A stretch of DNA of 64,000 nt, taken from a virus. Taxonomy: Duplodnaviria; Caudoviricetes. The stretch covers positions 1 through 64,000 of the IMG/VR virus record IMGVR_UViG_3300026549_000056. One strand, given 5' to 3'. The notes under the pieces are model-generated. The model made no database searches. It had not been told where the DNA came from and saw nothing but the letters and a program-made list of their open reading frames with translations. The position numbers and the translations under genes are program-made. Shown here in pieces: positions 5,270 to 34,675 of this stretch; position 1 is the stretch's first letter, and the number at the start of each line of letters is the position of its first letter.

Positions 5270-5340
5270 GGTGATGTCTTTCAATGGTAGGAAGAGCGTC
5301 TGATACGCGCTTAATGAAAGTTCGATTCTTTCCATCACTA
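5270..5340 (+). tRNA. tRNA-Ile(GAT)
   Basis: GGTGATG/CATCACT acceptor; AGCGT-CTGATAC-GCGCT; GAAAG-TTCGATT-CTTTC. Confidence 0.9.
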
Positions 5341-5600
5341 CTCCTCGAGGTCCTGACAACGAGGTTAAATAAAGTTCAGGCCCGTTTTGTAGGTGTCCGG
5401 GATAACCACCCGTTAGGAGCCAAAGTGTTTGATGGTCATAGCTTATTTTGATAAGCAACTGGTAAGGACAAGAGCCGTAAAGAAAAAGACCTGCGGCCGC
5501 CGCTGGCGCTTGAAAATTGGCAGAGTAGTGAGAAACCATCATTTTTATAGAAAGGAGACAATATCATGTGACTACTTTAACTAAAAGGAGGCTACATTTT

Positions 5601-6038
5601 ATGTCTAGAAGCTATAAAAAAAATCCATATGTGACTGATAACTCAAACGGCAGAAAAGGTCATGGTAGACCCATGAAAGTTTATGCTGCGAAGAAAGTCC
5701 GTCATTATAAGGATATGCCCACGACAGGCAGCAGAAGTTTTTACAAAAAAGTATTCTGTTCTTATGAGATCTGTGATTATAAATGGAGATTGACAAAAGA
5801 ACAGGCAATCTTGGATTGGCACGAAGAAGAAAAAGAATATCCTTGCTGGCATAGCTATTATATTCATAAGCCCAGCAAAGGTGAATCTTACGTAGACGAA
5901 TATGGAGTGTTACATGTCTCATCTTATGAAAGAGTTCTTGAGGAAGAATACATCGAGGTGGGACCGCTGCATAAGAAATACGGAACTTTAGAAAACTACT
6001 TAAATAAATACTGGAAAAAATGGTATTATAGGAAATGA
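5601..6038 (+). CDS. basic hypothetical protein
   Basis: AGGAGG RBS at about 5587 before ATG 5601. Confidence 0.55.
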   Translation: MSRSYKKNPYVTDNSNGRKGHGRPMKVYAAKKVRHYKDMPTTGSRSFYKKVFCSYEICDYKWRLTKEQAILDWHEEEKEYPCWHSYYIHKPSKGESYVDEYGVLHVSSYERVLEEEYIEVGPLHKKYGTLENYLNKYWKKWYYRK

Positions 6039-6118
6039 TTTAATAGGGAGAAATCGTTTTCTATTTTTCTCATCTAATAGAGTTCCAAGAACAACAGTAA
6101 GGAGAAGAAACAGAAACG

Positions 6119-6700
6119 ATGAAAAATAAAGTAATAAAAGGTATAATATGCGCGGCGGTTGGTATAGTAGCAGCAACGATGCCAGTTCAAGCAAGCGAAG
6201 CACCGGCCGCCGCAGACGTGGTATATACTACTACATATGTTAATGCAAGGACTGATTCAAAAGTAAGCAAAGATACATATGCTTTTACTCTTGAGCCGAA
6301 TGAAGAATTAGTAAGACTTGATGATGGTGAAGTTTGGGATCTTGTCCAAATCAATGGAGAAACTTATTTTATTTATGATAAGTATCTTTCTTCTCAACCT
6401 GTTACTATTAAATCAAATTGTTATTATTCAGCAAAAGATTTCAAGCGAATGGGTGTATTTAATTGGGACGGATGGAAATGGACTTGGTATAGCCAACGAA
6501 TCTTGCCTGGGAGCGCATTAAATATTCCAGGTCGTCATGTAGATGTTTCTGGATATATCTGTGATGAGAATGAGCGCATTGTCTTAGCTTGTGAATCATT
6601 AACAAAAGGAACAATAGTATAGACGCCATTGGGGAAAGAAGGGGTTGTACTTGATTCTTGTCCTACCTCTGGAGTAATTGATGTATATGTTTCGTGGTGA
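6119..6700 (+). CDS. secreted SH3 + 3D-like cell-wall hydrolase (TAG read-through at 6620)
   Basis: signal peptide, SH3-like segment; frame continues past TAG as TPLGKEGVVLDSCPTSGVIDVYVSW to TGA. Confidence 0.65.
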
Positions 6701-6899
6701 ATGATATAAAAAGATTTTGTGCAATAGTCATATTAAACATATTTATCTTACTATGCTTAATCCCGTTCTTGATTTAAGGGCATTTCTGATGAAGGGGCTT
6801 CACGAGAACTTCAAGATTCAGAGTATACAATTATATATAACAATGAAATTCCTTTAGGAATTGTTTGTGAATTTGGCTATTGAAAAATATAGCCAATAG

Positions 6900-6970
6900 G
6901 CAGCGATCGTTCAATGGTAGGATGGGGGTCTCCAAAACCTTTAATCTAGGTTCGAATCCTAGTCGCTGTG
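6900..6970 (+). tRNA. tRNA-Trp(CCA)
   Basis: cloverleaf with CTCCAAA loop and G73. Confidence 0.9.
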
Positions 6971-7501
6971 CTTTTGATTTTCATAAAAATTTTTATTATA
7001 ATTATTATGAAAGTTGAGGAAAGAAATATGATTTATTTCTTATGGATAGGTAAAAAGGCTGAAATGCCCAAAGTACCATATCTATACTGTTATAGGGCAA
7101 AGTCTTTTAATCAAGCAAAGTCTTTCGTTAAAGATTGTGTCAAACCTGGAGACTACTTGATTGTTAGTTCATCCAAAGAAAAGAAAGCTCAAAAATTCGT
7201 CAAACGACTCCAGAAGTATCACCAAGGTATAACTTCTTTTTTTGCTACACTAAACATAGATGTATTATAAGATCTTTTGATTTTTAAAAGAATTTTTATT
7301 ATAATATACCTATAAGATGAAGGGAGAAAATGATATGAGCGTTGTTTATTGCTATCAGGTAACTTATGTTGACTATTGCGGTAGAACCCATATTTTTTTC
7401 TGTCAGAATAAGAATGATGTGGATCATCTGCGTGATAATTATAATGTAAAGGAAGTTTTTCCGATACGTTATGTTGTAAATTCTGATTAATATATAATAA
7501 A

Positions 7502-7641
7502 AAGACGTTTACAGCAAAGCAAATACTTTCTTTTAGATATGATAACAAGAATCATTAAAAAGGGTTGAAATAGAGAGCCGTTAAGGGGATCGTGGTAAAT
7601 CGCCTTATCTAAGGAATGAAGAAACCCCCTAGTAGCGTCTT
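7502..7641 (+). ncRNA. ACAGCAA-motif RNA copy 1 (candidate Y-RNA-like)
   Basis: AAGACG...CGTCTT closing stem with TTTACAGCAA right after the 5' strand. Confidence 0.45.
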
Positions 7642-7646
7642 GATAT

Positions 7647-7717
7647 GCTCCTATCGTACAATGGTAGTACGCGACACCTGTAATGTCGTTATTCTGGTTC
7701 GAATCCGGATGGGAGCT
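7647..7717 (+). tRNA. tRNA-Thr(TGT), C33
   Basis: CGACA-CCTGTAA-TGTCG anticodon arm, full cloverleaf. Confidence 0.85.
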
Positions 7718-7914
7718 TTAGGTATAGGTTTCCACCTAAAGCCAAAAGTGAAACTGGTGTAGTATAACGCACTCATGAGTTATACCGTACTAGAACGAAA
7801 ACTGGCGTTAACTGCGAGAAAGTTTGAGCTTTAATTGATTTCCCAAATTGCAAATCATGCGGCGCATAGTTGCAAACCTCACGCCAGAGGGGTGGCTCCC
7901 ATGAGGTCTAGTAT

Positions 7915-7985
7915 GGAGCTGTAGTCCAAAGGTAGAACACCAGACTGTTAATCTGGGTACGAAGGATCGTTACCTTCCAGCTCCG
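7915..7985 (+). tRNA. tRNA-Asn(GTT)
   Basis: CCAGA-CTGTTAA-TCTGG; GGAGCTG/CAGCTCC. Confidence 0.9.
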
Positions 7986-8116
7986 CTTAATAAAAGAACT
8001 AGAGTAGTTAGTCACACCAACGGGAGCGGCTATCCGAAGCTGAGTGATGATAACACTTGTCAGCGGGCGCACCCAATGTTAAGATTTGCCTAGTTCAAGC
8101 TTTATCAGCAGGCGAT

Positions 8117-8188
8117 GGCTCTGTACGTCAAAGGTTAGACGGGTAGACTGTCGATCTACAGATCCGAGTTCAAGTCTCGGCGGAGTCG
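8117..8188 (+). tRNA. tRNA-Asp(GTC)
   Basis: GTAGA-CTGTCGA-TCTAC. Confidence 0.9.
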
Positions 8189-8399
8189 TTTATTACTTGA
8201 AAAGTAATAAAAATTTTATTATAATTATTATATAAGAAATGAGAAGTAAGCACGGAGACTAATTATGATTATTGGATTTATTGTTGGAGTGGTTGTTTGT
8301 ATCGCACTCTTTGATATTATCTTTATGATTGGTGCTAACGCAATCAAGGATGCCATTAATCAGTCCCTTGGCTATGATGATTATAATAGAATGTAATAT

Positions 8400-8474
8400 C
8401 GCTTTGTCGTCTAGTTCGGTTTAGGATAGTTGTTTCTCATGCAACAGACATTGGTTCAAATCCAATCAGAGTGA
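8400..8474 (+). tRNA. tRNA-Glu(CTC)
   Basis: GTTGT-TTCTCAT-GCAAC; C1-G72, A73. Confidence 0.75.
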
Positions 8475-8581
8475 TGTGAGACATAATGTCTCATGGTGTA
8501 CCGTCGTGGTCAATAGATTCGTCTGAGGATACGCTTAACAGTGACCACATAAATCTAAACAGCTAAGGAGTGTCCTCATAT

Positions 8582-8653
8582 GGCCCGTTAGGCAAGCGGC
8601 TAAGCCATTGCCCCTTCACGGCAAAGGCGCCAGTTCGACTCTGGCACGGGCTA
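8582..8653 (+). tRNA. tRNA-Glu(TTC), C33
   Basis: TTGCC-CCTTCAC-GGCAA; D arm TAGGCAAGCGGCTAAGCC. Confidence 0.9.
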
Positions 8654-8968
8654 TTAAAGGCAATATCAACTCGGGGCGGCCGCGTTAAAGAAACCCGAGA
8701 GAGTTGATCTGGTAGATCCAGAGCTGGGAGAGATACAGCATATACCCACTACCTTGATAGGGAGTCATGACCCTTCGAATTTCGGCTATAAAATTAAAAG
8801 GGAGCCGCCAATTGCAACAAAGCCTTTTCAATCATTGGTTTTTTCAATAGCGAGGTATAGACCGTTGCACTATTAAAGTTCTTTTAATCAAAAATTAAAT
8901 TAAAGGAAGTATAAACCGATGTTTTAATGATACCAGTTTGTGAGGGTCTGGCAAAAACCTCACTTTAT

Positions 8969-9044
8969 TGCAGAGTAGACTGGAGTCTGGTACCAGCTCT
9001 GGCTCATAACCAGATCTACGCGAGTTCGAATCTCGCCTCTGCTA
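8969..9044 (+). tRNA. tRNA-Met(CAT)
   Basis: TCTGG-CTCATAA-CCAGA. Confidence 0.85.
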
Positions 9045-9320
9045 TGCTACCAAGCAATAGCTAGGAATAGTTAAAAAGAACCTGCTGGCTTAAATCGTCC
9101 CGACGGCCATAAGAGAACAAGGTTGGGCGTCTTGTAATAGGGGAGGCCTAGGCTTGGTAATTTGTCCGCACTACCTGGCGGGGTATAAATATGGGACTAG
9201 CTCGCATCCCTAGTATAAATAAGATGCGCTTATCTCTTTCAGAGTCGCGTTATGTATGGCTCTTTTTAAATATATTCAAAAGAGGTAAAAGGAGCGCGGC
9301 CGCACTTATGGGCCGCAAAT

Positions 9321-9392
9321 GGGCCAGTCGTTCAATGGGAGGACTCTACACCTGCAATGTAGTAATGGGGGTTCAATTCCCCTCTGTGTCCA
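9321..9392 (+). tRNA. tRNA-Ala(TGC), C33
   Basis: CTACA-CCTGCAA-TGTAG; G3:U70; irregular acceptor. Confidence 0.75.
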
Positions 9393-9458
9393 CTTCACTT
9401 CCTATTTTCGTTTGCTAGTTATCTAGGAAGTAAAATTAGAGTAACTGGCTATTTTTAT

Positions 9459-9531
9459 GGACAGGTGGCAGATACGGTTATTGCGGGAGACTGAAAATCT
9501 CTAGGAGTTGGATCGACACCAACCCTGTCCA
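9459..9531 (+). tRNA. tRNA-Phe(GAA)
   Basis: GGAGA-CTGAAAA-TCTCT. Confidence 0.9.
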
Positions 9532-9533
9532 CT

Positions 9534-9596
9534 TAAGCGCGAACAGCAACTTTTACAAGGGATTGAATGGTAATCAATTAAACTTTAATGCGCTTA
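9534..9596 (+). ncRNA. ACAGCAA-motif RNA copy 2
   Basis: TAAGCGC/GCGCTTA stem followed by GAACAGCAA. Confidence 0.45.
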
Positions 9597-9610
9597 GAAC
9601 TTGTATCAAA

Positions 9611-9683
9611 GACGCTTACAGCAATTACTTTTATTCTTGTGCTTCGCGCCTACGGCGCTCAGTAAAATAATATAGGGGGCGTC
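9611..9683 (+). ncRNA. ACAGCAA-motif RNA copy 3
   Basis: GACGC/GCGTC stem followed by TTACAGCAA. Confidence 0.45.
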
Positions 9684-9685
9684 AT

Positions 9686-10066
9686 ATGACGATTACTTTA
9701 TTTATAACGATTCTTACAATAGGATCAATACTTAATATTCTAATGACGCAAGCGATTAAGCAGTGGTATAAAAATTAGGGAAAGATAGCTCCACCAAATA
9801 TGATAGCACTAATTAATAGTGTAGTATGTGGGGGCGGAGTAACAGCAGTTGTTTATATGTTGCTATCTATCCCGTGGACAGTCAATAATATCATATGTCT
9901 AGTGTGTGTGATATTCTTTAACTGGTTATCAGCAATGACTTCATACGATAAAGTTATACAAACTGTTGAGCAAATTGGCGTGGCCCTTGGTCAAAATATC
10001 ACTGATCCAGCGGAACCGAACGACTTAACGGGCGCCGCCGCTGACTTGAAAAATAAGAAAAATTAA
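9686..10066 (+). CDS. holin-like membrane protein (one in-frame TAG)
   Basis: ATG 9686 in frame with track ORF 9800 across TAG; three hydrophobic segments; C-terminal SYDKVIQTVEQI. Confidence 0.6.
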
Positions 10067-10218
10067 GATATAATAATTAAAGATACTGATGATAACCTTT
10101 ATCATTTTCATGAAAGACTTTCTTTCTGATGACGTGGCTAACGCCCACCACCTAGTACGTTAAGCTGGGGAACTCCAGGGTATGTTACTCTGCAAGGCCA
10201 GGTTGTGCTGGCCATTTA

Positions 10219-10300
10219 GTTGGCGTGATGGAACGTATACATCGAGGTCTTAAAAACCTCGGCCAGTAATGGATTGGGGGTGCAAGTCCCCTCGCCAACA
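10219..10300 (+). tRNA. tRNA-Leu(TAA)
   Basis: GAGGT-CTTAAAA-ACCTC with long variable arm. Confidence 0.85.
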
Positions 10301-10400
10301 CGAAAAAGGAGATAGATGAAGGTCATGTCTTCATTGAAAAGGTAACTCCATTCGCCTTCTCCTTTTATTCTTTTTGAATGGAGAGAAATGGAGATAATAA

Positions 10401-10550
10401 ATGATAGTTAATGGATATAAGATTATTGAGGATGGGTACTAGTATGTTCCTTCTACTAAAGGAACGTCGTTGTATGGACAAACCTTTGGGAAATTAATAG
10501 TAATAGGCAGCCCTTATAAAAGGGTTGGAGCAAAAAATACAAAAGCATAA
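10401..10550 (+). pseudogene. truncated homing-endonuclease-like ORF
   Basis: LYGQTFGKLIVI resembles the DLTGQRFGxLTV repeat of 22373-23278; ends after 49 codons; contains a TAG. Confidence 0.4.
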
Positions 10551-10570
10551 CTTATACAGTATAATATTTT

Positions 10571-10913
10571 GGGTCTGTAAATTTGGTATCGACAGGCATG
10601 GAAGATTCAGAGATAGCACGCGGTTGATGGTTAAGCCAACCTTAAAATTAACCAAAACAATAAACGCTGAAAATATTCAGATAGCTGCCTGAGCTTATCA
10701 GGTATCTTTAAGTAAGATCACTCTAGTAGCTTAAAGGTTCAATTACAGAGTTGCGTGAGGTGATTGACGCCCGCCCCACAAAGATAAGTCAAAGCGGCTT
10801 TAGATGGTTCGTCTATTGTTCACATCTATTGCGTCCATGAGATACAGTAGACTAAGCGTGTAGATTCTCTGATCGGAAATGTTTGGACGGGAGTTCGACC
10901 CTCCCCAGATCCA
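10571..10913 (+). ncRNA. ssrA: tmRNA, tag peptide (A)AENIQIAA*
   Basis: GGGTCTG...TCGAC 5' end; GGGAGTTCGACCCTCCC-CAGATCCA 3' tRNA-like domain with G3:U70; tag ORF 10666-10692 after ATAAAC, ending Ala-Ala-stop. Confidence 0.9.
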
Positions 10914-11365
10914 TTAGCTAGATGTAATATGAAATCAGGCGGGGTGAAAAGGCACCTCGTTAAACGTACTCGCATGGTGGCTGCTCCTGATGCTGAAGGC
11001 GCCCTTCTAGTACATAATTTGACATACTAAGGAAGTAGTCTACGGACTGGTGAAACGATATATCCCCTTAGACGTGCGGTATCGTAACCGATAGAATTAT
11101 GCGTAGTTTTAGTATTTTGAGTGTATACGATAAGTACACTACATCTTCTATTGAATAAAGAAATATTAATTGGAAATCCTAAAAAAATGGATATTCTGGT
11201 CATGTACTCATTTATGATAGAAGTATAGATGCCAAAGGAGACGCTGGAATATACCTGAGCGTATTTTGAAGCAAAGTAGGCAAGGAGTAGGATGAGGTGG
11301 GCAACGCAGTACCCATAAACGAATGTCTCGGCGTTGAGTAGCCCAAACGTGGATAAATACAATCT

Positions 11366-11440
11366 GCTTAACTATCCCAATTGGTAGAGGAGATAAGCTC
11401 AAACCTTATTTATGTCTCAGTTCGAATCTGAGGTTAAGCA
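11366..11440 (+). tRNA. tRNA-Leu(CAA), short variable arm
   Basis: ATAAG-CTCAAAC-CTTAT. Confidence 0.85.
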
Positions 11441-11498
11441 TTGCATTTTCAATAAATTTATTATATAATATATACATAAAGAGTTGAGAAAGAAATAT

Positions 11499-11535
11499 GG
11501 GTCGTTGGTGTAATGGTAACATATGCGCCTCCAAA
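11499..11535 (+). pseudogene. 5' half of a tRNA (Trp/Gly-like), 3' half missing
   Basis: GGGTCGT-TG-GTGT-AATGGTA-ACAT-A-TGCGC-CTCCAAA, then AT-rich sequence with no T arm. Confidence 0.55.
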
Positions 11536-11559
11536 TTTTGTAAAATAATTTTTATATAT

Positions 11560-11633
11560 AGCGGGATGGAGCAGTTTGGTAGCTCGCGTGGCTCATAACC
11601 ACGAGGTCGGTAGTTCAAATCTACCTCCCGCAA
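11560..11633 (+). tRNA. initiator-type tRNA-Met(CAT)
   Basis: 1:72 mismatch; GCGGGATGGAGCAGTTTGGTAGCTCG; CTCATAA loop. Confidence 0.9.
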
Positions 11634-11976
11634 CTTCTAGCGCAGTAATACCTGAATTGACAGGTTATATCCGAGCAGCATTGACATGCAAAATTCATGA
11701 CAATGCTAGCGATTGACTCCGGGAGAGCGGTAGCGCTGAGGATGACTTACTCCGACAGGACTAATAAAGTAAGTAGAACAACCTGCTGCTGTAGATAGCT
11801 CGAAGGCTATGAAAAGACAATATTTGACTTAAGCATTAGGGACAGATGAATACTTCTATGCAACCCTATTAAGTCAGCCGTTAAACTCGGCAGGCAGCAC
11901 TTTCAGAGTGGTCGTGTTGGGTTGTAGATGCCATTTATGAGAATAATATGCAAGCGCAACTAGACCACTCTGATAT

Positions 11977-12051
11977 GCCCTTGTAGCCCAATTGGTAGGA
12001 GGCAACTGACTTAGGATCAGTACAGTGCAAGTTCGAATCTTGTCAAGGGTA
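11977..12051 (+). tRNA. tRNA-Leu(TAG), short variable arm
   Basis: ACTGA-CTTAGGA-TCAGT. Confidence 0.85.
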
Positions 12052-12195
12052 TGAACCGTCTAGAGAAAACTTCAGTCACTCTCTAGAAAAAACTTAGCCA
12101 AGGTCAATAGTAAGTCTGAAGTGCTATTGAATATTGTGGTGTGTAAAGGTTAGGCTAAATTGGTTAGACTCCGCCACATATTTCTTAATTAAATG

Positions 12196-12333
12196 CACGT
12201 CTTAGGCAAGCGGTCTAAGCCGACGGTCTCCAGTCCTTAGTTTACAGGAAACTAGCTTTTAGCTAATTCGAGGGCAGCACTCGAAGGATTGTTAAAACCG
12301 TAGACACCAGTTCAAATCTGGTAGACGTGACCA
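12196..12333 (+). tRNA. Glu-type tRNA body with a 62-nt insert in the anticodon loop; candidate amber suppressor after splicing
   Basis: CACGTCT/AGACGTG-A-CCA; D arm almost identical to tRNA-Glu(TTC); ACGGT/ACCGT stem enclosing CTC[insert]TAAA. Confidence 0.7.
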
Positions 12334-12384
12334 CCTCCTTTCTTACTAGTGTTCTAGGAGGCTAAATTAGAAACACTAGATAAT

Positions 12385-12470
12385 GGAGTCGATCCGGCTA
12401 GATGAGGAAGCTGTCCTGAAAACAGTTGGGCGCGATGAGCGCCTTGTGGGTGCAAGTCCTACCGGCTCCG
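12385..12470 (+). tRNA. tRNA-Ser(TGA), C33
   Basis: GCTGT-CCTGAAA-ACAGT, long variable arm, G73. Confidence 0.85.
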
Positions 12471-12670
12471 CTTGGTGGAACTACCCGCCAACTGTAAATA
12501 AGGGATTGCAACCCAGTAGAAAAATATCTGACTCTAGGCTTAAAGAGGGTAAACATACAGCAGGTCGGGGATGCGATCGGTTACATGGCTGTTGCAAGTA
12601 AAGAAGAGAAGCAGATACTCGCAAGGGTGTCGCGGGGCAGCTCTACAGCTACATTCCACAAGCCCCATTA

Positions 12671-12761
12671 GCGTCAATACTCAAGTCTGGTGAAGAGGGG
12701 GCACTGCTAACGCCCTAGGCCGAGGAAACTCGACGCGGAGGTTCGAATCCTTCTTGGCGCG
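12671..12761 (+). tRNA. tRNA-Ser(GCT)
   Basis: CTGCTAA loop, long variable arm. Confidence 0.85.
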
Positions 12762-12763
12762 CT

Positions 12764-12882
12764 GCGACAAGTAGCTCAATAGGTAGAGCACAGTATATAG
12801 GTTGTCTAGACCTAGACACGAACAGCTACTTTTTTCTGGCATATGGGGCCTGGTGTTGTAGGTTCGAATCCTACCTTGTCGC
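12764..12882 (+). ncRNA. tRNA-mimic RNA (YrlA-like) with extended arm replacing the anticodon arm
   Basis: canonical D arm (GCTCAATAGGTAGAGC), T arm (GTAGGTTCGAATCCTAC) and acceptor, but a roughly 60-nt arm carrying CTAGACACGAACAGCTA. Confidence 0.6.
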
Positions 12883-12909
12883 CTGTCTAAAAAATAGGAG
12901 GGTTATGAT

Positions 12910-13266
12910 ATGAGTGGAACTTTACCTCGTTATAGACGTAAGAGCGTAATGACTGATGATTATTCTGGCGATTAGGTCTTAGGATTAAATGACCAGATTA
13001 CCATAGTTGATGACATTGTTTATATCGGTGGTGTATCAACTGGAATAAATGTCCGTGGTAGTGAAGGAAAATCCGCTTACCAAATAGCAGTAGAACATGG
13101 CTTTACTGGAACTGAAGAACAATGGCTAGCTTCTCTACAGGCAAAAGATGGTCAGACTTGCTGGGAAAGAGCGCAACAGGTTGTACCTAATATTCTTTCT
13201 GAAGCAGGTATTACTACAGAAGAAGAATTTTATAAACAGATACTACAGAATATTGATACATTTTAA
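12910..13266 (+). CDS. virion-protein-like ORF (GKSAYxIA...GFTGTEEQWLASL motif), one in-frame TAG
   Basis: AGGAGG RBS; motif typical of phage fibre/collagen-like proteins; missed by the track because of the TAG. Confidence 0.6.
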
Positions 13267-13484
13267 TTTTCTTTACTTTATTCAAAAATTAATATATAAT
13301 ATATACATAAAGAATTGAGAAAGAAACAATCATTACCGAGGATCCTACCAAGTGGCAACAGGCTTGAGTGCGCGCTATATAGCCTGAGATTCCTGTAAAT
13401 AGGGAGTAGAAGAGTGCATTAACCTCCCCGTGTTCTTAATTTGGCCGATTGAGATAGACCGAATGGATGAAGGTAGGTATATAT

Positions 13485-13556
13485 CGAGATCGTAGTGTAA
13501 TGGTTAGCACCCCTCGCTTGGGACGAGGTAGAGGCGTTCGAATCGCACGATTTCGA
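13485..13556 (+). tRNA. tRNA-Pro(TGG)
   Basis: CCTCG-CTTGGGA-CGAGG; imperfect T stem. Confidence 0.75.
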
Positions 13557-13859
13557 TTTAAATTAAGTGGTCTTATTTGCTGTCGATGCTAGACTTTTAG
13601 CAGCAAGATAAGTGTAGGAAACATCATTCTAATATGATGAAAAAAGATGCCAACAAAAGTATCCAATACTACTCCGATCCCTAGAGCATCTTGGCGCGGG
13701 AGACGTCCCGATGACCTTCTTGGAGAAGCAGCAACTAGATACAAGCCTAGTATAAAAAGATGCCGCGCCGATAGACCGCAGGTTCGCAATAGTCTATCAA
13801 ATTTTAATTAAGAAGTGAGTCTACGAAGAATAGAGGTTAGGCTCCGAAGGAGAATTAAA

Positions 13860-14165
13860 ATGAGAACTATTTATGAAGCAGAAGATGGTAAGCAGTATGA
13901 GTCCGAGGACGAAGCAAGAGAAGCTGATAAGCAGTATCTTGCAACCCGAAAGAAGGAAGAACTCGAAAAGACTGAGCGGAAGGAAGCAGCGGCCAAGGTG
14001 ACTGATGCATTTAAGGCAGCTGCGAAGGCAAAGAGAGAGGCTAATGAAGAGATGCAGAAGTTTCTTGATAAGTACGGCAGCTTTCACGAGACATTCCGAG
14101 AGGATGAGGCGAAGGACTTCTTTGAAGATCCAATCGATGTGTTCTTCAATCACTTCTTCTTCTAA
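13860..14165 (+). CDS. coiled-coil hypothetical protein
   Basis: AAGGAG RBS before ATG 13860. Confidence 0.65.
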   Translation: MRTIYEAEDGKQYESEDEAREADKQYLATRKKEELEKTERKEAAAKVTDAFKAAAKAKREANEEMQKFLDKYGSFHETFREDEAKDFFEDPIDVFFNHFFF

Positions 14166-14474
14166 TGGCGCGGCGGCTGCTTGAAGGTACCTCAACCTTA
14201 TCGTGAAGAGACCTAAGGCATGGTCGCCGCCAGTCATTGTTCCTTTTGATGGTATGAGGAACTCAAAGATGCAAATCATATAGGATAGATCTGTAGTCCT
14301 CTTGTTATGAACAAGTTGGTTAAATGCAGCACACTCATTCAGCCGAAGAAGGAGTAATAAATAAACGGACGGGTTCCACTTGACCTCTAGGAAAGAGCCT
14401 AGTTGATAAAATAAGTGCGTAAACGATTTCCGCGTTTAGCCTAGCCGCGGTTTTATAAAATAGCTAGGCTGTAT

Positions 14475-14546
14475 AGCGGTATAGAATAGTGGTGAGTTCG
14501 CATGGCCTTGACCCATGAAGCCCCAGTCCGATTCTGGGTACCGCCG
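14475..14546 (+). tRNA. tRNA-Gln(TTG), C33
   Basis: CATGG-CCTTGAC-CCATG; weak 1:72 pair. Confidence 0.8.
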
Positions 14547-14552
14547 CTATTT

Positions 14553-14624
14553 TGGGGATTCGTACAACGGTCAATATGACTGGCTCTGAACCAGTAGATA
14601 GAAGTTCGACTCTTCTATCCCCAG
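14553..14624 (+). tRNA. tRNA-Gln(CTG)
   Basis: U1-A72; ACTGG-CTCTGAA-CCAGT. Confidence 0.9.
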
Positions 14625-14783
14625 TTATGTATATGATCGGAAACCATATACAGAATGTTTGCCTTGAAGGTTGCCCTAGTCGGGAATGTGTACACCCCTC
14701 TAAAGTAGTGAATCTAGATTCTTTGGGAATATATCCACACAAGGCCGGTTGTAAGAGGTAAACCGTATAAAACCTCTTATTTT

Positions 14784-14855
14784 GTTTCTATAGGCTAATA
14801 GATAGACCATAGCACTACAGATGCTAGAATGAGCGTGCAAATCGTTCTAGAGACA
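14784..14855 (+). tRNA. Arg(ACG)-like tRNA with ACA anticodon
   Basis: TAGCA-CTACAGA-TGCTA; Arg-like D loop (GATA). Confidence 0.6.
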
Positions 14856-14858
14856 TAT

Positions 14859-14932
14859 GGTGATCGTGTCCGAATTAGCTAAGAAACAGATCATGATTCT
14901 GTCATATGTGAATTCGAGTCTCACCGATCACC
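14859..14932 (+). tRNA. His-like tRNA with ATG anticodon (possibly degenerate)
   Basis: G-1:C73; ACAGA-TCATGAT-TCTGT. Confidence 0.6.
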
Positions 14933-14933
14933 C

Positions 14934-15004
14934 ACGGGTATGATGTAATAGTAGCATTTACCCCCTCCAAGAATAAGGTGTGGGCACACATCCCATTATC
15001 CGTT
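14934..15004 (+). pseudogene. degenerate tRNA-Gly(TCC)
   Basis: CCTCCAA loop, broken anticodon stem, aberrant T loop CACACAT. Confidence 0.55.
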
Positions 15005-15008
15005 TGAT

Positions 15009-15079
15009 GTTCTTGTCGTTTAATAGTAGGATGACTGGTCGCAACCCAGTAGATCTTGGTGCAATTCCATGCAAGAACT
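15009..15079 (+). tRNA. tRNA-Cys(GCA), C33
   Basis: ACTGG-TCGCAAC-CCAGT; U73. Confidence 0.75.
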
Positions 15080-15088
15080 TAAATAAAT

Positions 15089-15161
15089 GCTTCCGTAGCC
15101 CAATGGAAAAGGCAACGTTCTTCTAAAGCGTAGATTGGGCGTTCGAGCCGCCCCGGAAGCA
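15089..15161 (+). tRNA. tRNA-Arg(TCT)
   Basis: ACGTT-CTTCTAA-AGCGT. Confidence 0.85.
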
Positions 15162-16041
15162 CGCTTGATTTCCTTATAAATTTTAAGTATAATATATTTA
15201 CAAAGAAATGAATTATTAGCTGTCTATAAGGTCATAAATACCTTTTGGAAAGCATTTAAGGAAGATGCTTCCGGCATCAGGTCAGATGATGTTTGGGTTA
15301 TGGACATGCTGACGCGATATGACCGGATCTGCAACGAATACTCCGAGGGGCCGTTAAAAGAGTTCACATTGGATCTGAGCAAGACGTTTGTAAGAGAGCT
15401 GGAAAGACTGTTTAAAGAGAAAAACGGCTATTAAGGCATAAACTAACGCCGAAAACATAATAGTGCGGAAATGACGCAAAATTTTGCCATTTCTAGGCAC
15501 TACAAGAGAGGTGGATAACATGGACGAACACATAAGGGATTGCAAGAAAAAAGCCGCTATCAAGCTGAGAAGGAAAGCAATTGCACTAAACGGTTTGGCT
15601 GAAATATTAAAAAGCACGAATGATTATGATGACTGGGGATGTTTGCTGGGAGAAATCTATGATGGGATGCTGGATTTGATCGATGAACTCGAGGAGTGCG
15701 AAGGATGAGGATTGCATTAATCATTATTTTTGTGATCGCAGCAGGCGTGCTGATCACCGTCATAGCGGCATCGGAGGCAATCAGTGTCGCAGCGGCGTTT
15801 ATGGAAAACGATGTATGTTGCGGGAACTGTAAATATCACGTCCACGACGACAACGGCGACGGAATGTGCGTAAACGCAGACAGCGATGCGTGCGCAGATT
15901 GGACGGACGACAGCGATATTTGCGGAGAATGGTCAGATAGAGAGAATTAACGTGATAAATCTGAGCACATATCGGAAAGAATCCGAAGCTGTGATTACGC
16001 ATTGATGCAGGGGAAGTACCGAAGATTGAGAGGATAGATAA

Positions 16042-16302
16042 ATGAAAGAGACAACACTTTGGGTTTGCGAAATTTGCGGCACAAGGTACGACAGCATAAC
16101 AGAAGCTGAGAACTGCGAAGCGGCACACATCAAACCAAAGAGGCTGACGAAAACCATGAAATTCCACCCGTATAAGTGCGGGGGAGATCCGATCCTTACA
16201 GGATATAAAGTATCCCAGTACCCTGACTGGATAGACATCGAGATGCAGGATGGAAAAACGGTTAGATACAAGCTCGATGAAACACTGAAGAGGATAAAAT
16301 GA
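16042..16302 (+). CDS. small Zn-binding hypothetical protein (GC-rich block)
   Basis: CEICG...CEAAH; ATGA-type coupling with the next gene. Confidence 0.6.
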   Translation: MKETTLWVCEICGTRYDSITEAENCEAAHIKPKRLTKTMKFHPYKCGGDPILTGYKVSQYPDWIDIEMQDGKTVRYKLDETLKRIK

Positions 16303-16916
16303 AGATTGAAAGGATGACAGAAATTGAAACAACGGATATCCAGATCGGAGACAGAATCCATGTCGGTCACTACACGGCGACCTGTCAGGACATCACGCCG
16401 AAGGGCGCAATCTTCCTCTTGGATCAGTACCTCGACCGGCCCATGCCGATGAACAAAAAGAACACGAACCACGGCGGCTACGACAATAGCGATCTCAGGA
16501 AATATCTCCAGAGCGACACCGTCCTGAGCGATTTCGAGGAGATCCGCCCCTACATGAAACCGTGGAACAACGGCGATCTGCTCCGGATCCCATACTACGG
16601 CGAAATGTTCGACAACAACGATCGCGACGATTTTGTCGAGCCTGACAGTAATGAACAGTGGCCGCTCATGAAAGACGCGCACAACCGCATGGCGTCAAGG
16701 TGCGGAGAACCCGAATGGGGATGGCTCGCGAATACGGCTCGCGACTCCTCGACATATTTCTGCAATGACAACAACGACGGCGGTGCGGGCATCTGGGACG
16801 CCTCGGACGTCCTCGGGGTCCGCCCGGCTTTCCTAATCGCGCGAGTCGATACTGGACTAGAAGGTCCACCTGATAAAGTCAACGGGCAATACGCTCTATG
16901 TGAGCCTGATGTGTAG
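16299..16916 (+). CDS. DUF6273/CLec-like protein, DGR-target-like C-terminus
   Basis: GGYDNSDLRKYL and WGWLAN...STYFCNDNNDGGAGIWDASDVLGVRPAF. Confidence 0.6.
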   Translation: MKIERMTEIETTDIQIGDRIHVGHYTATCQDITPKGAIFLLDQYLDRPMPMNKKNTNHGGYDNSDLRKYLQSDTVLSDFEEIRPYMKPWNNGDLLRIPYYGEMFDNNDRDDFVEPDSNEQWPLMKDAHNRMASRCGEPEWGWLANTARDSSTYFCNDNNDGGAGIWDASDVLGVRPAFLIARVDTGLEGPPDKVNGQYALCEPDV

Positions 16917-16919
16917 GGA

Positions 16920-17609
16920 ATGATGAATAACTTAATCAACAGAAAAGCATTGTGCGATTACGCACTGAATCAAAAGGACAAGAGCGTTACACCGAATGAT
17001 ATTATGCGGTTTCCTTCCGCACAGCCAGAACAGCGGTGGATACCGTGCAGTGAGAGGCTGCCGAAAGTAGGGCAAGACATACTGATGTCTGTCGGTGGGA
17101 TGTACACGGCAGAAGGATGCTTGAGAGAAGACGGCGATTGGGCACAGTTCCGATGGGACACAATCCAGAGAAAAGATATGGTTGGTGCATGGATGCCGTT
17201 ACCAAAGCCGTTCGAAGGGGGTGTTAAAATTGACGCACAGGAAGGCGCAACTTCCGACATGATTAGCAGGTAGGCGGCGATTGAGGCGCTATGGAAAGCA
17301 CTTTATGAATACGAGGACGAGACTGAGCAGAAATTTCAAGCATCTGACGAATTAAATACCGATGATTGGTTTATGCACAGAATTTTTGTCCAGAACATGA
17401 GTGACATAGACAGGCAGACGATTCTTAATTTGCCATCCGCTCAGCCAGAACCGTTATCCGATGCCTATACGAAAGCAGTATGGACAAAACCAAATATCAG
17501 TTATCAAACACAATGTTGCAGCAACTGTCATCGCACTTTCATTAGCAGACCTGATGAAACGATACAATTTTGCCCTCATTGCGGCGCAAAGATGGAGGTG
17601 ACAACATGA
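16920..17609 (+). CDS. DUF551-like mosaic protein (continuous if TAG 17271 is read through)
   Basis: WIPCSERLP...WMPLP; ISR*AAIEAL; track ORF 17373 is in the same frame. Confidence 0.5.
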
Positions 17610-18172
17610 CAGATGAAATGAGAGCGAGAGAAAAAGCAATTTGCGAGGTGGCAAAAGTCAAAGATATAGGCGAGGTGTCTGATGGATTCCACACATTTAA
17701 CGGACTGTATGAACAGAGAATGATCCTGTTTGCGGTTCTGGTAAAGGCATATAAAGACAAAGCATGGAAATCATACAGACATGAGGATGGTGAGTACTGC
17801 TTTGGCGGCGGTTGGTTTATCGTTGGAATTGATACGCCCGAAGGCAGTTATACATACCACTACGAAAATAAGTATTGGGATATGTTTGATTGCGTTGATT
17901 TGCCGAGAGCGAAGCACTGGGATGGACACACCGAGGCAGACGCAGAAACAAGGCTTATGTCGTTAAAGCCTGTGCGGAAGAAAGGATGGTGGCAAGAGAT
18001 AACAGCATCAGATTGCAGTGGGTATGACCCTACTCTTGCAGGATATGATGACCCTGTGGTTGGGTGTATCTGTTCTGTGTGTAGAGAAGGTTACGAAAAA
18101 GAATTGATGGGCGAAGTGTATTGGAACTACTGCCCTAACTGCGGAGCAGATATGAGAGGTGAACAGGAATGA
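17606..18172 (+). CDS. conserved phage protein (SDGFHTF...WDGH motifs) with C-terminal Zn ribbon
   Basis: GGAGGTG RBS; YCPNCGADMR C-terminus. Confidence 0.65.
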   Translation: MTDEMRAREKAICEVAKVKDIGEVSDGFHTFNGLYEQRMILFAVLVKAYKDKAWKSYRHEDGEYCFGGGWFIVGIDTPEGSYTYHYENKYWDMFDCVDLPRAKHWDGHTEADAETRLMSLKPVRKKGWWQEITASDCSGYDPTLAGYDDPVVGCICSVCREGYEKELMGEVYWNYCPNCGADMRGEQE

Positions 18173-19821: not shown

Positions 19822-19892
19822 GCCCGTTAATATAATGGTTTAGTATGCGAGTTACCAAACTTGAGATCTAGGTTCGATTCCCAGGACGGGCT
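19822..19892 (+). pseudogene. atypical tRNA, Gly-like, 6-nt loop TACCAA
   Basis: GCCCGTT/GACGGGC-U73 acceptor, D and T arms present, anticodon loop short. Confidence 0.5.
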
Positions 19893-24101: not shown

Positions 24102-26231
24102 TTATGCTATGCGTCGCCACATGTACACCGCTAAGTATGGTGGCATGTTGTTGTGTGGTTGAGAACCGCCTGTTTCTCTTATGTTCAGTGTAAATAATCT
24201 TCCCTGTGGGCCACTTGCAATGGCACTCATATCAGATTCAACTGCCCCGTTGTTAAGACCAATTTTCCAATTCTTAGATGAATCCATATCAAAATAATAG
24301 TCATGGCTATGTCTTGGCATCTCATCTATTGTCAGTGTATGCTGTGCCTCGCCGCCTGTGCTCCCTGCCGCATATGCATCACCAGCAGCCAGCAGGAACC
24401 GGTCTTTGATCCGTTCCCACGTGCCGCCAATAAATGTACCCGGATTGGTATCGTTGACCGACAGGTAGATGGAACCGACTGGGTATAACTTCGCTATACT
24501 CTGATTAACGCTGTTTATGGATTTAACAATGTCTCTCAGCAGATCCGGCAGATCACGAATCTGTTCTTCCAGTGTATCCAGTTTTGCCTTATCAGCTTTT
24601 GACATTAATCCATTAGCTGACGAGGTAGCAGTTGCTCCAGAGTACGATGTTGCGGATATTCCCTCTTGGAATGTTGTCTTCCCATACACAGTCCCACCGG
24701 CAACATCCAAAGCTCCGAGTGCTTCAGCGGGTGAGAATGACGGTCGTGAATCAAGTAGACGCATTCCAGCTATTTCGAGCTGATTATATCCAAAATCTCC
24801 ACTCTTTGTTGAGTATGGAGTAGCTGCATAAATGGTAATACGAATCCCCTTGATCCATAAATAGCTCAAGCCATCATCTTTATAGGGATTTAATCCGCAC
24901 CATAAGCAGTTTATACTATCTGACACATTTGTTCTTTCAAATACAGTTAGCCAATCCCCACCCTTCCAAGTATGGTTTGTATAATCAGGACTATTGGGAC
25001 CGTATGCCATAATTTCCAGCTTCCAATGCTTCAGTCTTGCATTAGATTGCCATCCCCTATGTTCGTAAAATATTAATGTTAAAACATCTGTCGTTGTAAT
25101 TTCATGTCTTCTTACAATCGTTAATATTGCGGGATCCGATTCCGAAATAAGATTAGTTGCAATAGTACAATCAGATGATAAATCTGCCGTAAAAAGCCCA
25201 GCTATATTGGAAAAATGTTGGGTTGTTGTAATTGTATAATCTGATTTTTTATGGGCTAAATAAAAATAATCTCCCTCTCCTGACGCCGCATAAAAATTTT
25301 TGATTTTATATAATGAGCGAGAAGCATCATTGAAATCAAAGTGTCCAACTTCATTTGTATTTGTTGCCGTTTGCCCGATCAATTTGTAATACGGTTTATC
25401 GACATCGGAAGTATTATCGACATTCCCCAGACCGACATCCGCCTTGCTCAGTGACACTGCGCCCGTTTTGCCGTTGACAGACTTGACGTTCGACCCTGCG
25501 CCGATGCCGTCGAGCTTCGATTTATCCGCAGCGCTCATCAGGCCATCTGTACTGGAGGTAGCAATGCCGTACGTGGTATTGGTATCTTGCTGCGTAAAGG
25601 TACTGGTAGTCCCATCCAATGCCGTTGCTGTAAATGTCGTACCACTTCGTGTAATACTCTTAATTGCTTTGGACTGGTCAAGGTTTGCAACATTGCCAAG
25701 GCCTACTTGTGCTGGTGTATGTGTATGACTTGCAGGGGCGGCGCCAATTTCACTTGCACTATAACTTGGCTTTTTGGCGGCCTTGGCCCATGCGTAAACG
25801 TCACTAGCTGGCCTGGCGTTACTTAATCTACTATCACTAGTAGTTACATAGTTAGACAAATCAACATTAGAACCTAGAGCATCCCATGTTGTACCATTCC
25901 AAGCAACATTCATACCCGCCTTACCATAAGAACTATCATTAGTAATATTATAAACATCGCCAACTACTTGTCCAGAGGTAGGAAGCTTGTCTGCTGTCAC
26001 ACTACCTTTATATTTATAAGTAGATGCAACAGCAGCATTAATTTTTGTATCTGTTTCGCTCTTGGTATAAGCACCAACATCGCCCGCGCCAAGAGAAATA
26101 TTACTAGATAATGCTTTTCCATTAACTGTTCTAGTATTAGGAACTGCACTGTTTGCCGCATTTCTAGCTGTAGTATCTTTTAAATTATAAGTAGTTCCAT
26201 TAGGAAGTTTTATTGCACCTATATCAGCCAT
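24102..26231 (-). CDS. tail fibre protein
   Basis: GLMSAADKSKLD repeats, VKSVNGKTGAV, C-terminal YPVGSIY...HNNMPPYLAVYMWRR. Confidence 0.8.
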   Translation of the reverse strand: MADIGAIKLPNGTTYNLKDTTARNAANSAVPNTRTVNGKALSSNISLGAGDVGAYTKSETDTKINAAVASTYKYKGSVTADKLPTSGQVVGDVYNITNDSSYGKAGMNVAWNGTTWDALGSNVDLSNYVTTSDSRLSNARPASDVYAWAKAAKKPSYSASEIGAAPASHTHTPAQVGLGNVANLDQSKAIKSITRSGTTFTATALDGTTSTFTQQDTNTTYGIATSSTDGLMSAADKSKLDGIGAGSNVKSVNGKTGAVSLSKADVGLGNVDNTSDVDKPYYKLIGQTATNTNEVGHFDFNDASRSLYKIKNFYAASGEGDYFYLAHKKSDYTITTTQHFSNIAGLFTADLSSDCTIATNLISESDPAILTIVRRHEITTTDVLTLIFYEHRGWQSNARLKHWKLEIMAYGPNSPDYTNHTWKGGDWLTVFERTNVSDSINCLWCGLNPYKDDGLSYLWIKGIRITIYAATPYSTKSGDFGYNQLEIAGMRLLDSRPSFSPAEALGALDVAGGTVYGKTTFQEGISATSYSGATATSSANGLMSKADKAKLDTLEEQIRDLPDLLRDIVKSINSVNQSIAKLYPVGSIYLSVNDTNPGTFIGGTWERIKDRFLLAAGDAYAAGSTGGEAQHTLTIDEMPRHSHDYYFDMDSSKNWKIGLNNGAVESDMSAIASGPQGRLFTLNIRETGGSQPHNNMPPYLAVYMWRRIA

Positions 26232-32486: not shown

Positions 32487-32840
32487 TCAAAGTTCAACAT
32501 CATTCATTGCTGCAATATATTCAATGTTTGCCTTGTTTTTAAGCACGTCTGCCGCCAATTCTGTCCCTCTTGTTAGAGTGAGCTTGTAGCAGTTTACATT
32601 TCCGCCCTCTGTTGCAATAGGGAGTTCTTTAATTTCATTGTTTTTTAAAGTAGTGAAATTAAGAACTGTTTTAATAATAGAACCATCATCATTTTTTAGT
32701 GATACTTTTGGCTGATTAATTACTTGTTTTGCTAAAGTATCTTTATTAGCAGCTTCCTGTGGAATATATACATCTAATTCAGTGTCAGTCACACCATAGT
32801 TTAATACCTTATATTGATTAGAACCAAAAACTACTACCAT
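32487..32840 (-). CDS. tail-fibre chaperone-like protein
   Basis: C-terminal ANIEYIAAMNDVEL; adjacent to XkdX-family gene. Confidence 0.55.
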   Translation of the reverse strand: MVVVFGSNQYKVLNYGVTDTELDVYIPQEAANKDTLAKQVINQPKVSLKNDDGSIIKTVLNFTTLKNNEIKELPIATEGGNVNCYKLTLTRGTELAADVLKNKANIEYIAAMNDVEL

Positions 32841-32854
32841 TGATTGTTCTCCTT

Positions 32855-33062
32855 TTAGTCAATTGATTGGACTAGCGAGGCTTGATGGTCTATCAAACCG
32901 TACACAAAGTCTCTATAAAAATCATCATCTACATGATGAAGTGTATCCTAATTATTGAATTGTGTCAATCTGCCTCTGAATGACATATAGCTTTGTCCGC
33001 CTTGGTGTAAAGTCATTGTTCCTTCTGATATTCTTGCTCCAAGTTTATGTAAAAATCTACTG
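32855..33062 (-). pseudogene. DGR reverse transcriptase, C-terminal remnant
   Basis: RFLHKLGARISEGTMTLHQGGQSYMSFRGRLTQFNN*DTLHHVDDDFYRDF resembles the DGR-RT C-terminus. Confidence 0.6.
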
Positions 33063-33186
33063 ATCTAATTTTATCTTTTACTCCAAAATTTCTTAATGCT
33101 AATTGAATAAGGGATTGATCTGCCATTACAGCATCGTAATGGTAGTCAATCTCAGATTCAGACCTATTTCTTATAGGAACTGACAT
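33063..33186 (-). pseudogene. avd: DGR accessory (Avd-like) gene, 5' remnant
   Basis: AAGGAG RBS; MSVPIRNRSES...LALRNFGVKDKIR. Confidence 0.6.
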
Positions 33187-33248
33187 ATATATTCTCCTTT
33201 TAACTCATTTTTATATCTATTATTTGGTAGTACCATTTGGTACCTGAA

Positions 33249-34067
33249 TTATCCAAAGAGTACCTTAGGCACAACGCCAATAGTATCCGACGCGGCACGG
33301 TAGTCGGCATAGCCACGGCCGGCGACATGAGCAAAAAGCGTAGAACTCGCCACCGCACAAAGCCACCAGTCGCAGCGGCTATTATCTTCTGGATTAAGTT
33401 TAACTAAAAGTTCTGGATTCATTGCAAAACCAGGCAGTTGTCTATTAGATTCACCGACATCATGAGCATTGCCCCAAATAGATGAGCCATATACGTCAAC
33501 TTCACTTAGAAGTCTGCAATTGGTATCCGTCCAACACCAGGTAGAAGTGCAACCTGACCATCCGCTATATCCAGCAGCAGTAGCAGTTGTATTAATACTA
33601 TTCGATATTAAGCTTCTCCACGTTAAAATATGAGAATCTAAAGCGGTAGAAATTTTGGTAGCAAATTCTGGAAGGTGAGTCTTAAACATCTCTGATTCCA
33701 GATAGGCACCTTCTGTAGTATTTGTGCCATTCATCTGAGCAGTTCCAAGTATATCCTTAGGTACAAGAACAAGATGATGACTAGTTAACTACGTATCATC
33801 ATCATGAATATACCAATCAATAGCCATAACTATAAACCTAACTAGTTTGCTATCAATATTTACTCTGATCTCATCACCAACATAAATATCAGAGAAATTG
33901 CCTGCATTAACTAGAGCTTGAAGTTGTGAAAGTGTATAAGGCGCAGTTCCTCCAGTTGTATCAACTAGAACCTTACCTCTGTAAATAGCATTGTGGCTCG
34001 CAACTTGCTGATAGGCATCTGTCACAATATTCTTTTCATTTTTGACAATATTAGCTAAACCTGCCAT
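33249..34067 (-). CDS. DGR target protein (CLec/DUF6273-like), TAG at 33789
   Basis: two track ORFs in one frame; GC-rich 3' variable region WWL...FAHV..G.A...AS...GV.P with a run of NNY codons. Confidence 0.75.
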
Positions 34068-34087: not shown

Positions 34088-34675
34088 TCAATTCTTCACA
34101 CAAATTACAAAAGGTGTATTGATCTTAACTTTAGAGTAAAGTGTTAAAGCTGTATCATTTGCAACAATAAAATCAACATCGTTAAATGCTTCCCTTTGCG
34201 CTGCGCTAGGTACTGTATTACTTCCACCCGGAATTAGCATGATAGTAGGGTGATCTCCATGACCAGCTGACATAGTTACAGATTTGCTATAATAAGCACC
34301 ATCATCGCCAGTCAGAGTGGTAGTTGTAGTAGACCAAGTTGCTGTAATTTCTACAGACTCACTAGAACTAAGTGCTTGTGTGATAGCCGCCTGTGTCATA
34401 GTACCATCCGTATTACTACCAGTAGAAGTATATACTTTAGTCACGCCCGCGACAGTTGGGGACGCAGTATTGATTGTGGTCTTGGCGTTATCAATAGCTT
34501 GTGTGATAGCCGCCTGTGTCATAGTACCATCAGTATTACTACCAGTAGAAGTATACGCCTTCAGAATACCTGCAATAGTGGCGCTAGCTTCTTTAACAGT
34601 AGAACCGATTGGGTAAGGAGTAGACCAGCCTCCATCTTTCGTGTAAACAGAAATAGCTGTTATTTTTTTAGCCAT
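34088..34675 (-). CDS. virion protein with internal duplication
   Basis: YTSTGSNTDGTMTQAAITQA occurs twice. Confidence 0.65.
   Translation of the reverse strand: MAKKITAISVYTKDGGWSTPYPIGSTVKEASATIAGILKAYTSTGSNTDGTMTQAAITQAIDNAKTTINTASPTVAGVTKVYTSTGSNTDGTMTQAAITQALSSSESVEITATWSTTTTTLTGDDGAYYSKSVTMSAGHGDHPTIMLIPGGSNTVPSAAQREAFNDVDFIVANDTALTLYSKVKINTPFVICVKN
34374..34555. repeat. direct repeat, two copies of about 59 nt, 123-nt period
   Basis: 34374-34432 and 34497-34555 differ at one base. Confidence 0.8.

Follow-up and report, generated by a model that had tools for sequence, protein, structure and literature searches.

The window analyzed here, a stretch of 64,000 nucleotides, comprises the first 64 kb of an IMG/VR virus record of 99,929 bp; the completeness of this 99,929-bp contig is about 64% as estimated by CheckV. 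When TAG is read as a sense codon, long open reading frames (ORFs) open up on the minus strand of the window, including those for a 2,734-aa tape measure, tail proteins, and a virion structural protein. Judging from this predicted gene content, the locus belongs to a TAG-recoded, siphovirus-like (long-tailed) phage and occupies the distal end of its tail module. All translations were made with TAG as glutamine, and this choice affects no conclusion on the locus.

Downstream of the tape measure and the tail genes, the tail module closes with the target gene of a diversity-generating retroelement (DGR; minus strand, 33249..34067). It encodes 272 aa with an in-frame TAG at codon 93 and is intact over its full length, as the original prediction from the window sequence had stated. 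The gene upstream (minus strand, 34088..34675) encodes 195 aa with a sub-threshold match to the tail tip fibre family PF09327 (E = 0.016, 15.4 bits). Past the target gene, the minus strand carries a small palindrome, a chimeric 57-codon ORF, and, in another frame, the tail of a reverse transcriptase (RT) gene that ends at 32855, which is the order that had been predicted. The 57-codon ORF (minus strand, 33013..33186) consists of codons 1–46 of an accessory gene (33049–33186) followed by 11 codons that stem from RT DNA in a different frame and by a TGA stop. The RT remnant (minus strand, 32855..33052) retains codons 346–410 of 410 and the stop codon, and all catalytic motifs have been lost. Its frame is −1 relative to that of the 57-codon ORF, such that the accessory gene is indeed fused out of frame to the RT tail. 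Beyond the remnant, a 117-aa gene with no assigned function (minus strand, 32487..32840) forms the downstream flank of the cassette in deleted and intact genomes alike. As for the features of a functional cassette, the window has neither an RT with the [LIV]GxxxSQ and YxDD motifs nor a pair of template repeat (TR) and variable repeat (VR).

The target protein is colinear with relatives of 272–281 aa, and the variation among them is concentrated in the last 40 or so residues. In alignments of 11, 7, and 16 target relatives, the same C-terminal columns vary and the rest is nearly invariant. An AlphaFold2 model built on 43 homologs reached a pLDDT of 91.1. A structural search of this model against representatives with VIA-align returned 28 chains at Z ≥ 5, almost all of which are C-type-lectin-like domains, and Foldseek also gave a C-type-lectin-like result. 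The top structural match, at Z 14.2 and with an rmsd of 3.0 for 178 aligned residues, is 9qa6, the N-terminal domain of an IgA peptidase from Thomasclavelia ramosa. Other matches include Lcl (8q4e, Z 7.4) and the DGR variable proteins TvpA (2y3c, Z 5.5) and Mtd (1yu0, Z 4.7). The target is thus a DGR variable protein with a predicted C-type-lectin fold and the VR at its C-terminus. Its C-terminal half also weakly matches DUF6273 (PF19789), a Pfam family of Firmicutes surface and phage proteins that is present in some target relatives at 31–37% identity; with E = 0.036 and 14.4 bits against a cut-off of 23.5 bits, the target is not assignable as a member by sequence.

A locus search of IMG/VR with the target protein returned a single relative, hereafter L001. 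The same type of search, with the target protein or its alignment as the query, returned none in the JGI metagenomes and none among GenBank phages. Two BLASTN blocks connect L001 with the window: L001 1–9029 corresponds to window 42040–33041 at 97.4% identity, and L001 11059–14959 to window 33052–29154 at 99.3% identity. The approximately 2 kb of L001 between these blocks has no counterpart in the window. After the target gene, L001 carries an accessory gene (183 aa), a 112-nt TR that repeats the 3′ end of the target (L001 9598–9709), and a DGR-type RT gene of 410 aa (L001 10024–11253). The alignment thus supplies what the original prediction had taken to be deleted, namely the rest of the accessory gene, the TR, and most of the RT (345 codons). 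The RT of L001 passes the Pfam RVT_1 threshold (E = 3e-14; 53.6 bits against a cut-off of 29.6), aligns over its full length with Brt of Bordetella phage BPP-1 (E = 5e-10; IGSQISQ on IGSLTSQ and YMDD on YMDD), matches the solved bRT chain 8ub7 in the PDB, and has 604 homologs at E ≤ 1e-30 among cluster representatives.

Base-by-base extension of the alignment between the window and L001 places the break precisely. L001 has two copies of the pentamer TTACA (9017–9021 and 11059–11063) that are 2,042 bp apart, the window has a single copy (minus strand, 33048..33052), and exactly 2,042 bp of L001 DNA between the two pentamers are absent from the window. The piece in question contains accessory codons 47–183, the TR with its spacer, and RT codons 1–345. 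A switch of frame had been predicted near 33060; the switch exists, but its true site is 33048–33052, 8–12 bases away. The claim that one deletion accounts for the structure is borne out, given that L001 holds the extra 2,042 bases exactly at the switch, with TTACA at both endpoints.

The VR (minus strand, 33269..33380; 112 nt) covers the last 37 or so codons of the target gene and is homologous to the TR of L001. The adenine content is 9.3% in 33269–33375, compared with 30.5% in the remainder of the target gene. Over a 107-nt core, the TR and the own VR of L001 have 20 mismatches, and all 20 are at TR adenines. Over the same core, the window VR differs from the L001 TR at 24 of the 33 template adenines and at three of the 74 other positions (C>T, G>T, and G>A), and over the entire 112 nt, 74 of 77 non-adenine positions are identical. 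The three non-adenine changes are consistent with a background divergence of 2.6% in the upstream flank. Because the changes relative to the L001 TR are adenine-specific and the others are at the background level, these comparisons indicate that the window VR was written by a DGR of the L001 kind. A run of twelve consecutive NNY codons had been taken as the product of mutagenized AAY codons. These codons are present, within a run of 15, and eight of the twelve are AAC or AAT in the L001 TR. However, the run alone is weak evidence because 63% of all target codons are NNY and another NNY run of 10 exists in the gene. Permissive BLAST, an adenine-tolerant scan, and a scan of non-adenine positions only all found nothing above background that resembles a TR in the window or in the 99.9-kb contig. 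This contig, which is about 64% complete, also has no second VR and no Pfam RVT_1 match.

The homology between TR and VR ends at its 3′ side with GGCGTTGTGC (minus strand, 33269..33278), and the flanks of the VR and TR diverge beyond. By analogy with the BPP-1 model, this end would be the position where an initiation-of-mutagenic-homing (IMH) element lies. The 3′ end of the VR and its downstream flank differ by one base between the window and L001. The palindrome after the target stop codon (minus strand, 33230..33243; 5-bp stem and 4-nt loop) had also been singled out in the original prediction. The hairpin is present, but its significance could not be substantiated: the folding energy of −2.7 kcal/mol is within chance (z = −0.68, with 45 of 200 shuffled sequences equally stable), and the palindrome is broken by a mismatch in L001, which bears the intact cassette. 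It is probably not functional and was rejected as a homing element.

The first 46 residues of the 183-aa accessory ORF of L001 are identical to those of the 57-codon ORF in the window. The prediction of an Avd-like N-terminus is correct with regard to the position of the gene; no similarity to Avd was found. Avd was defined here by a four-helix bundle and by the Pfam families bAvd (PF22296) or PF05635. In sequence and profile searches, the accessory protein has no match in Pfam (including bAvd), NCBIfam, PHROGs, or the PDB, and the chimeric ORF and the RT tail in the window match no family either. The comparison of the fragments with Avd profiles that had been suggested as a check accordingly found no Avd similarity, and hhalign gave a probability of 0.1% for the accessory protein against BPP-1 Avd. 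The accessory family is narrow, with seven clusters down to 64% identity. Its AlphaFold2 model is all-helical, but the pLDDT is 58; Foldseek found nothing significant with this model, and an Avd-family bundle (2rld) appeared at rank 35. The sole hint is a neighbor cluster in the ESM Atlas that is named ‘Avd-like’ (score 0.90). Based on these searches, the accessory product is not demonstrably Avd, and ‘Avd-like’ applies to its position only. Within the L001 accessory gene, two TAGs are found four codons apart (L001 9279–9293; codons 133 and 137). Under the standard code, the product would end at 132 aa, a length typical of Avd; on nine contigs, a separate ORF of 42 aa (MKTLPL...) has been called. 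The two TAGs and the separate 42-aa ORF raise the prospect that amber read-through may give two forms of the accessory protein.

The cassette itself had been predicted to be recoded, and this claim was confirmed: the RT remnant in the window has an in-frame TAG at 32948–32950, and the L001 cassette has 11 in-frame TAGs in the RT gene and two in the accessory gene. At the 11 TAG positions of the RT, Glu is the most frequent residue in 149 homologs (e.g., in 143 of 149 at position 73 and in 73 of 149 at position 68), and Tyr is found in 125 of 149 at position 144. The mean residue profile at the TAG positions (E 0.27, K 0.18) resembles that at the Glu codons of the same RT (E 0.25, K 0.15), whereas the profile at its Gln codons (Q 0.27) is unlike it; this supports the reading of TAG as Glu in this phage. 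ARAGORN found no suppressor tRNA with a CUA anticodon in the 99.9-kb contig. The plus strand of the window has an array of 20 tRNA genes and a tmRNA gene (10571–10913) in the region of 5270–15162, as well as an unusual tRNA-like gene at 19822–19892 whose anticodon has four bases (acca).

The same deletion is found in well over 100 public assemblies, in company with intact relatives. The exact 57-aa chimeric protein was recovered from 49 contigs of up to 102,442 nt, with JGI, Logan, and ENA as the sources. Single-residue variants with the same junction account for about 100 more contig records of up to 137,154 nt, and a 53-aa ORF of the RT tail (start MTLHQ) has been called separately on about 60 contigs. 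Exact 30-mer and 24-mer DNA strings of the junction were found neither in IMG/VR nor in the JGI metagenomes. As for the intact alleles, 29 contigs bear the exact 410-aa RT, alongside which 30 variants of the RT and 33 of the accessory protein are known. Deleted and intact alleles are thus about equally common in public assemblies. Furthermore, two truncated accessory ORFs in ENA/Logan have other junctions, namely P0234 (on a 1,931-nt contig), with a tail that maps to window 32896–32949, and P0235 (on a 3,525-nt contig), with a tail that maps to 32821–32850. These truncated ORFs indicate that larger deletions with other endpoints occur and that at least two, and probably three, different deletions have removed the cassette in this phage group.

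The junction ORF was paired with target alleles by identical longest-contig sizes across the protein tables and not by DNA. In this manner, the TTACA junction was linked to seven target alleles: P0001 (the window), P0097 (102,442-nt contig), P0119 (8,902-nt contig), P0125 (50,212-nt contig), P0113 (2,182-nt contig), P0127 (1,443-nt contig), and P0140 (280 aa; 11,206-nt contig). Each of these alleles has its own VR, and the alleles also differ by 7–20% outside of the VR. Distinct VRs on junction contigs argue against a simple history of one deletion and one frozen VR. In addition, the chimeric ORFs share N-terminal polymorphisms with different intact lineages (N7/D7, E10/K10, V22/A22, and I40/V40). 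It had been proposed that the deletion locks receptor specificity. In cis, this proposal probably stands, since the TR and the RT are gone from the contig and the VR would be frozen there, with the corresponding consequence for binding; at the population level the matter is more complicated, given that the deletion contigs carry many different VRs. Recombination, recurrent loss, and mutagenesis in trans are all possible explanations for these differences.

The deletion itself could be questioned in two ways. Metagenome assembly is known to suffer from hypervariable VRs (PMC8008677), and the true genome may have a full cassette that the assembler collapsed or skipped. Yet the two sides of the junction share just five identical bases, which is far below any assembler k-mer, and the chimeric protein, which is possible only with the junction, is found on 49 independent contigs from three independent sources. 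An assembly artifact is therefore effectively refuted, and we consider it extremely improbable. Alternatively, the two frames might be joined by a programmed −1 frameshift that yields a small functional fusion protein rather than marking a scar. The second frame is indeed displaced by −1 from the first, with a T run close to the switch. Nevertheless, this explanation was rejected, and its chances are close to nil: the comparison with L001 assigns the first frame to the beginning of one gene and the second to the terminal part of another gene 2 kb away, no slippery heptamer (X XXY YYZ) is present in frame, and neither piece matches any family. We are highly confident in the main reading, in which a single 2,042-bp deletion in a TAG-recoded, siphovirus-like phage reduced a DGR to a scar, with the target and VR untouched.

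Two further hypotheses concern the history and consequences of this deletion. The cassette may have been shed repeatedly at an imperfect repeat, AGNAGA...TTACA(C)TAAANTT, with the current VR being frozen each time. The junction peptide occurs on accessory N-termini that have the polymorphisms of different intact lineages, with V40 only six codons from the junction, and both target sublineages (272 aa and 280 aa) occur together with this junction; moreover, the two additional junctions (P0234 and P0235) imply that the cassette was lost more than once. However, the perfect repeat is only 5 bp, and with 1,537 pairs of 5-mers common to the accessory and RT genes, chance reuse of the same pair is expected to be rare. 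The extended homology around TTACA is weak, and recombination among near-identical phages gives the same pattern. We regard such a hotspot as possible but rather doubtful. The other hypothesis leaves the deletion as it is, concerns its consequence alone, and holds that the VR is not frozen. The deleted genomes, in which the VR and its homing boundary are intact, would still be diversified in trans: co-infecting DGR-proficient relatives would provide TR RNA, RT, and accessory protein, or a second DGR would reside in the third of the genome outside the contig. Under this hypothesis, the differences at template-adenine positions of the VR among contigs with the same junction (P0001, P0097, P0119, P0125, P0113, P0127, and P0140) are readily explained. 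Given that intact alleles are about as frequent as deleted ones, co-infection is plausible. The 3′ end of the VR and its flank are the same as in L001 except for the one base, and, with a contig that is only about 64% complete, the rest of the genome could hold a second DGR with a matching TR. On the other hand, the 99.9 kb available has no matching TR, the linkage was established from matching contig sizes and not from DNA, and the linked targets differ by 7–20% outside of the VR, such that whole-gene recombination or separate lineages would suffice. We consider diversification in trans unlikely.

Based on the high-confidence reading of the locus as a deletion scar, the following sequence of events may be proposed. 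In the intact relatives, the RT would copy the TR RNA with errors at adenines, and the resulting cDNA would overwrite the VR at the 3′ end of the gene for a tail protein with a C-type-lectin fold, thereby altering phage binding. In the genome of the window, one deletion between the TTACA pentamers took out accessory codons, TR with spacer, and RT codons together and left intact the target gene, the already diversified VR, and the 3′ boundary of the VR. Such a genome would no longer be able to re-diversify the VR by itself, and changes in binding would presumably be left to ordinary mutation, to recombination with DGR-proficient relatives, or to cDNA provided in trans during co-infection. A more speculative extension, which we consider improbable on balance, is a near-balanced polymorphism of DGR-proficient ‘mutator’ genomes and deleted genomes. 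The cassette would be shed repeatedly (through at least two or three junctions, perhaps at a hotspot), and the deleted genomes would acquire new VRs through the cDNA of relatives or through recombination. If true, the deleted genomes would be cheaters that use hypermutation without paying for it.

The gene order of L001 is that of the BPP-1 DGR, i.e., mtd, bbp7 (avd), TR, and brt. The two systems are also alike in the adenine-only mismatches between TR and VR of L001, in the RT, which aligns with Brt through IGxxxSQ and YMDD, and in a target with a C-type-lectin fold (predicted here), a C-terminal VR, and a location at the end of the tail module. In contrast to BPP-1, the window has no accessory gene body, no TR, and no RT catalytic domain. 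The accessory product of 183 aa (132 aa if the first TAG is a stop) has no detectable similarity to Avd, the RT of L001 is written with 11 TAGs, and no significant hairpin follows the VR of the window. DGRs have also been described from amber-recoded crAss-like gut phages, with amber codons in the RT genes, RTs with the GxxxSQ motif, and C-type-lectin tail fibre targets, and complete cassettes coexist with fragments in some crAss-like families (PMC12386605). Unlike these recoded phages (PMC12386605, its reference 31), the phage examined here is not crAss-like by what was seen, with a tape measure of 2,734 aa. Fragments of DGR cassettes in recoded gut phages have thus already been described, and the present case is an unusually well-resolved example in a different lineage; compared with that study, the present analysis documents the exact endpoints, a near-identical sister with an intact cassette, and how often the deleted allele occurs across assemblies. 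Quimbyvirus is another gut phage with a DGR, the target of which is downstream of tail fibre genes, and the activity of this DGR was inferred from adenine-specific differences among near-identical genomes (PMC8008677). The Quimbyvirus RT is encoded in three overlapping frames and was argued to be active (PMC8008677), whereas the RT in the window is truncated beyond repair.

A decayed DGR by itself is not surprising; the high frequency of the loss and its multiple junctions raise the interest of this case. The window and L001 represent a natural before/after pair, with genomes that are 97–99% identical, a mutagenic machinery that was lost precisely, and a target that was kept. This pair makes it possible to test the cost and gain of hypermutating a receptor-binding protein, as well as the servicing of a target in trans. 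It also illustrates that DGR finders that begin from the RT miss orphan VRs and RTs with 11 amber codons.

Two other regions of the window encode proteins related to tails or to the C-type-lectin fold. A 709-aa tail fibre/tail protein is encoded on the minus strand at 24102–26231, separate from the main tail module and within a stretch of 43.5% GC. This gene has zero TAG codons, and the C-terminal 130 residues of its product match several phage tail protein families. On the plus strand, 15900–17650 is a GC-rich island, with 48% GC in 16001–18000 compared with about 37% elsewhere and an AT skew of +0.22. A gene at approximately 16301–16917 in this island has a product that matches DUF6273 (E = 2e-5) and bears at its end a C-type-lectin-like tail, rich in Asn/Asp, that resembles a DGR target; at the nucleotide level, this gene has no similarity to the VR or TR. 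It is followed by genes with DUF551 and WDGH domains, and the TAG at about 16915 appears to be the real stop codon of this early gene.
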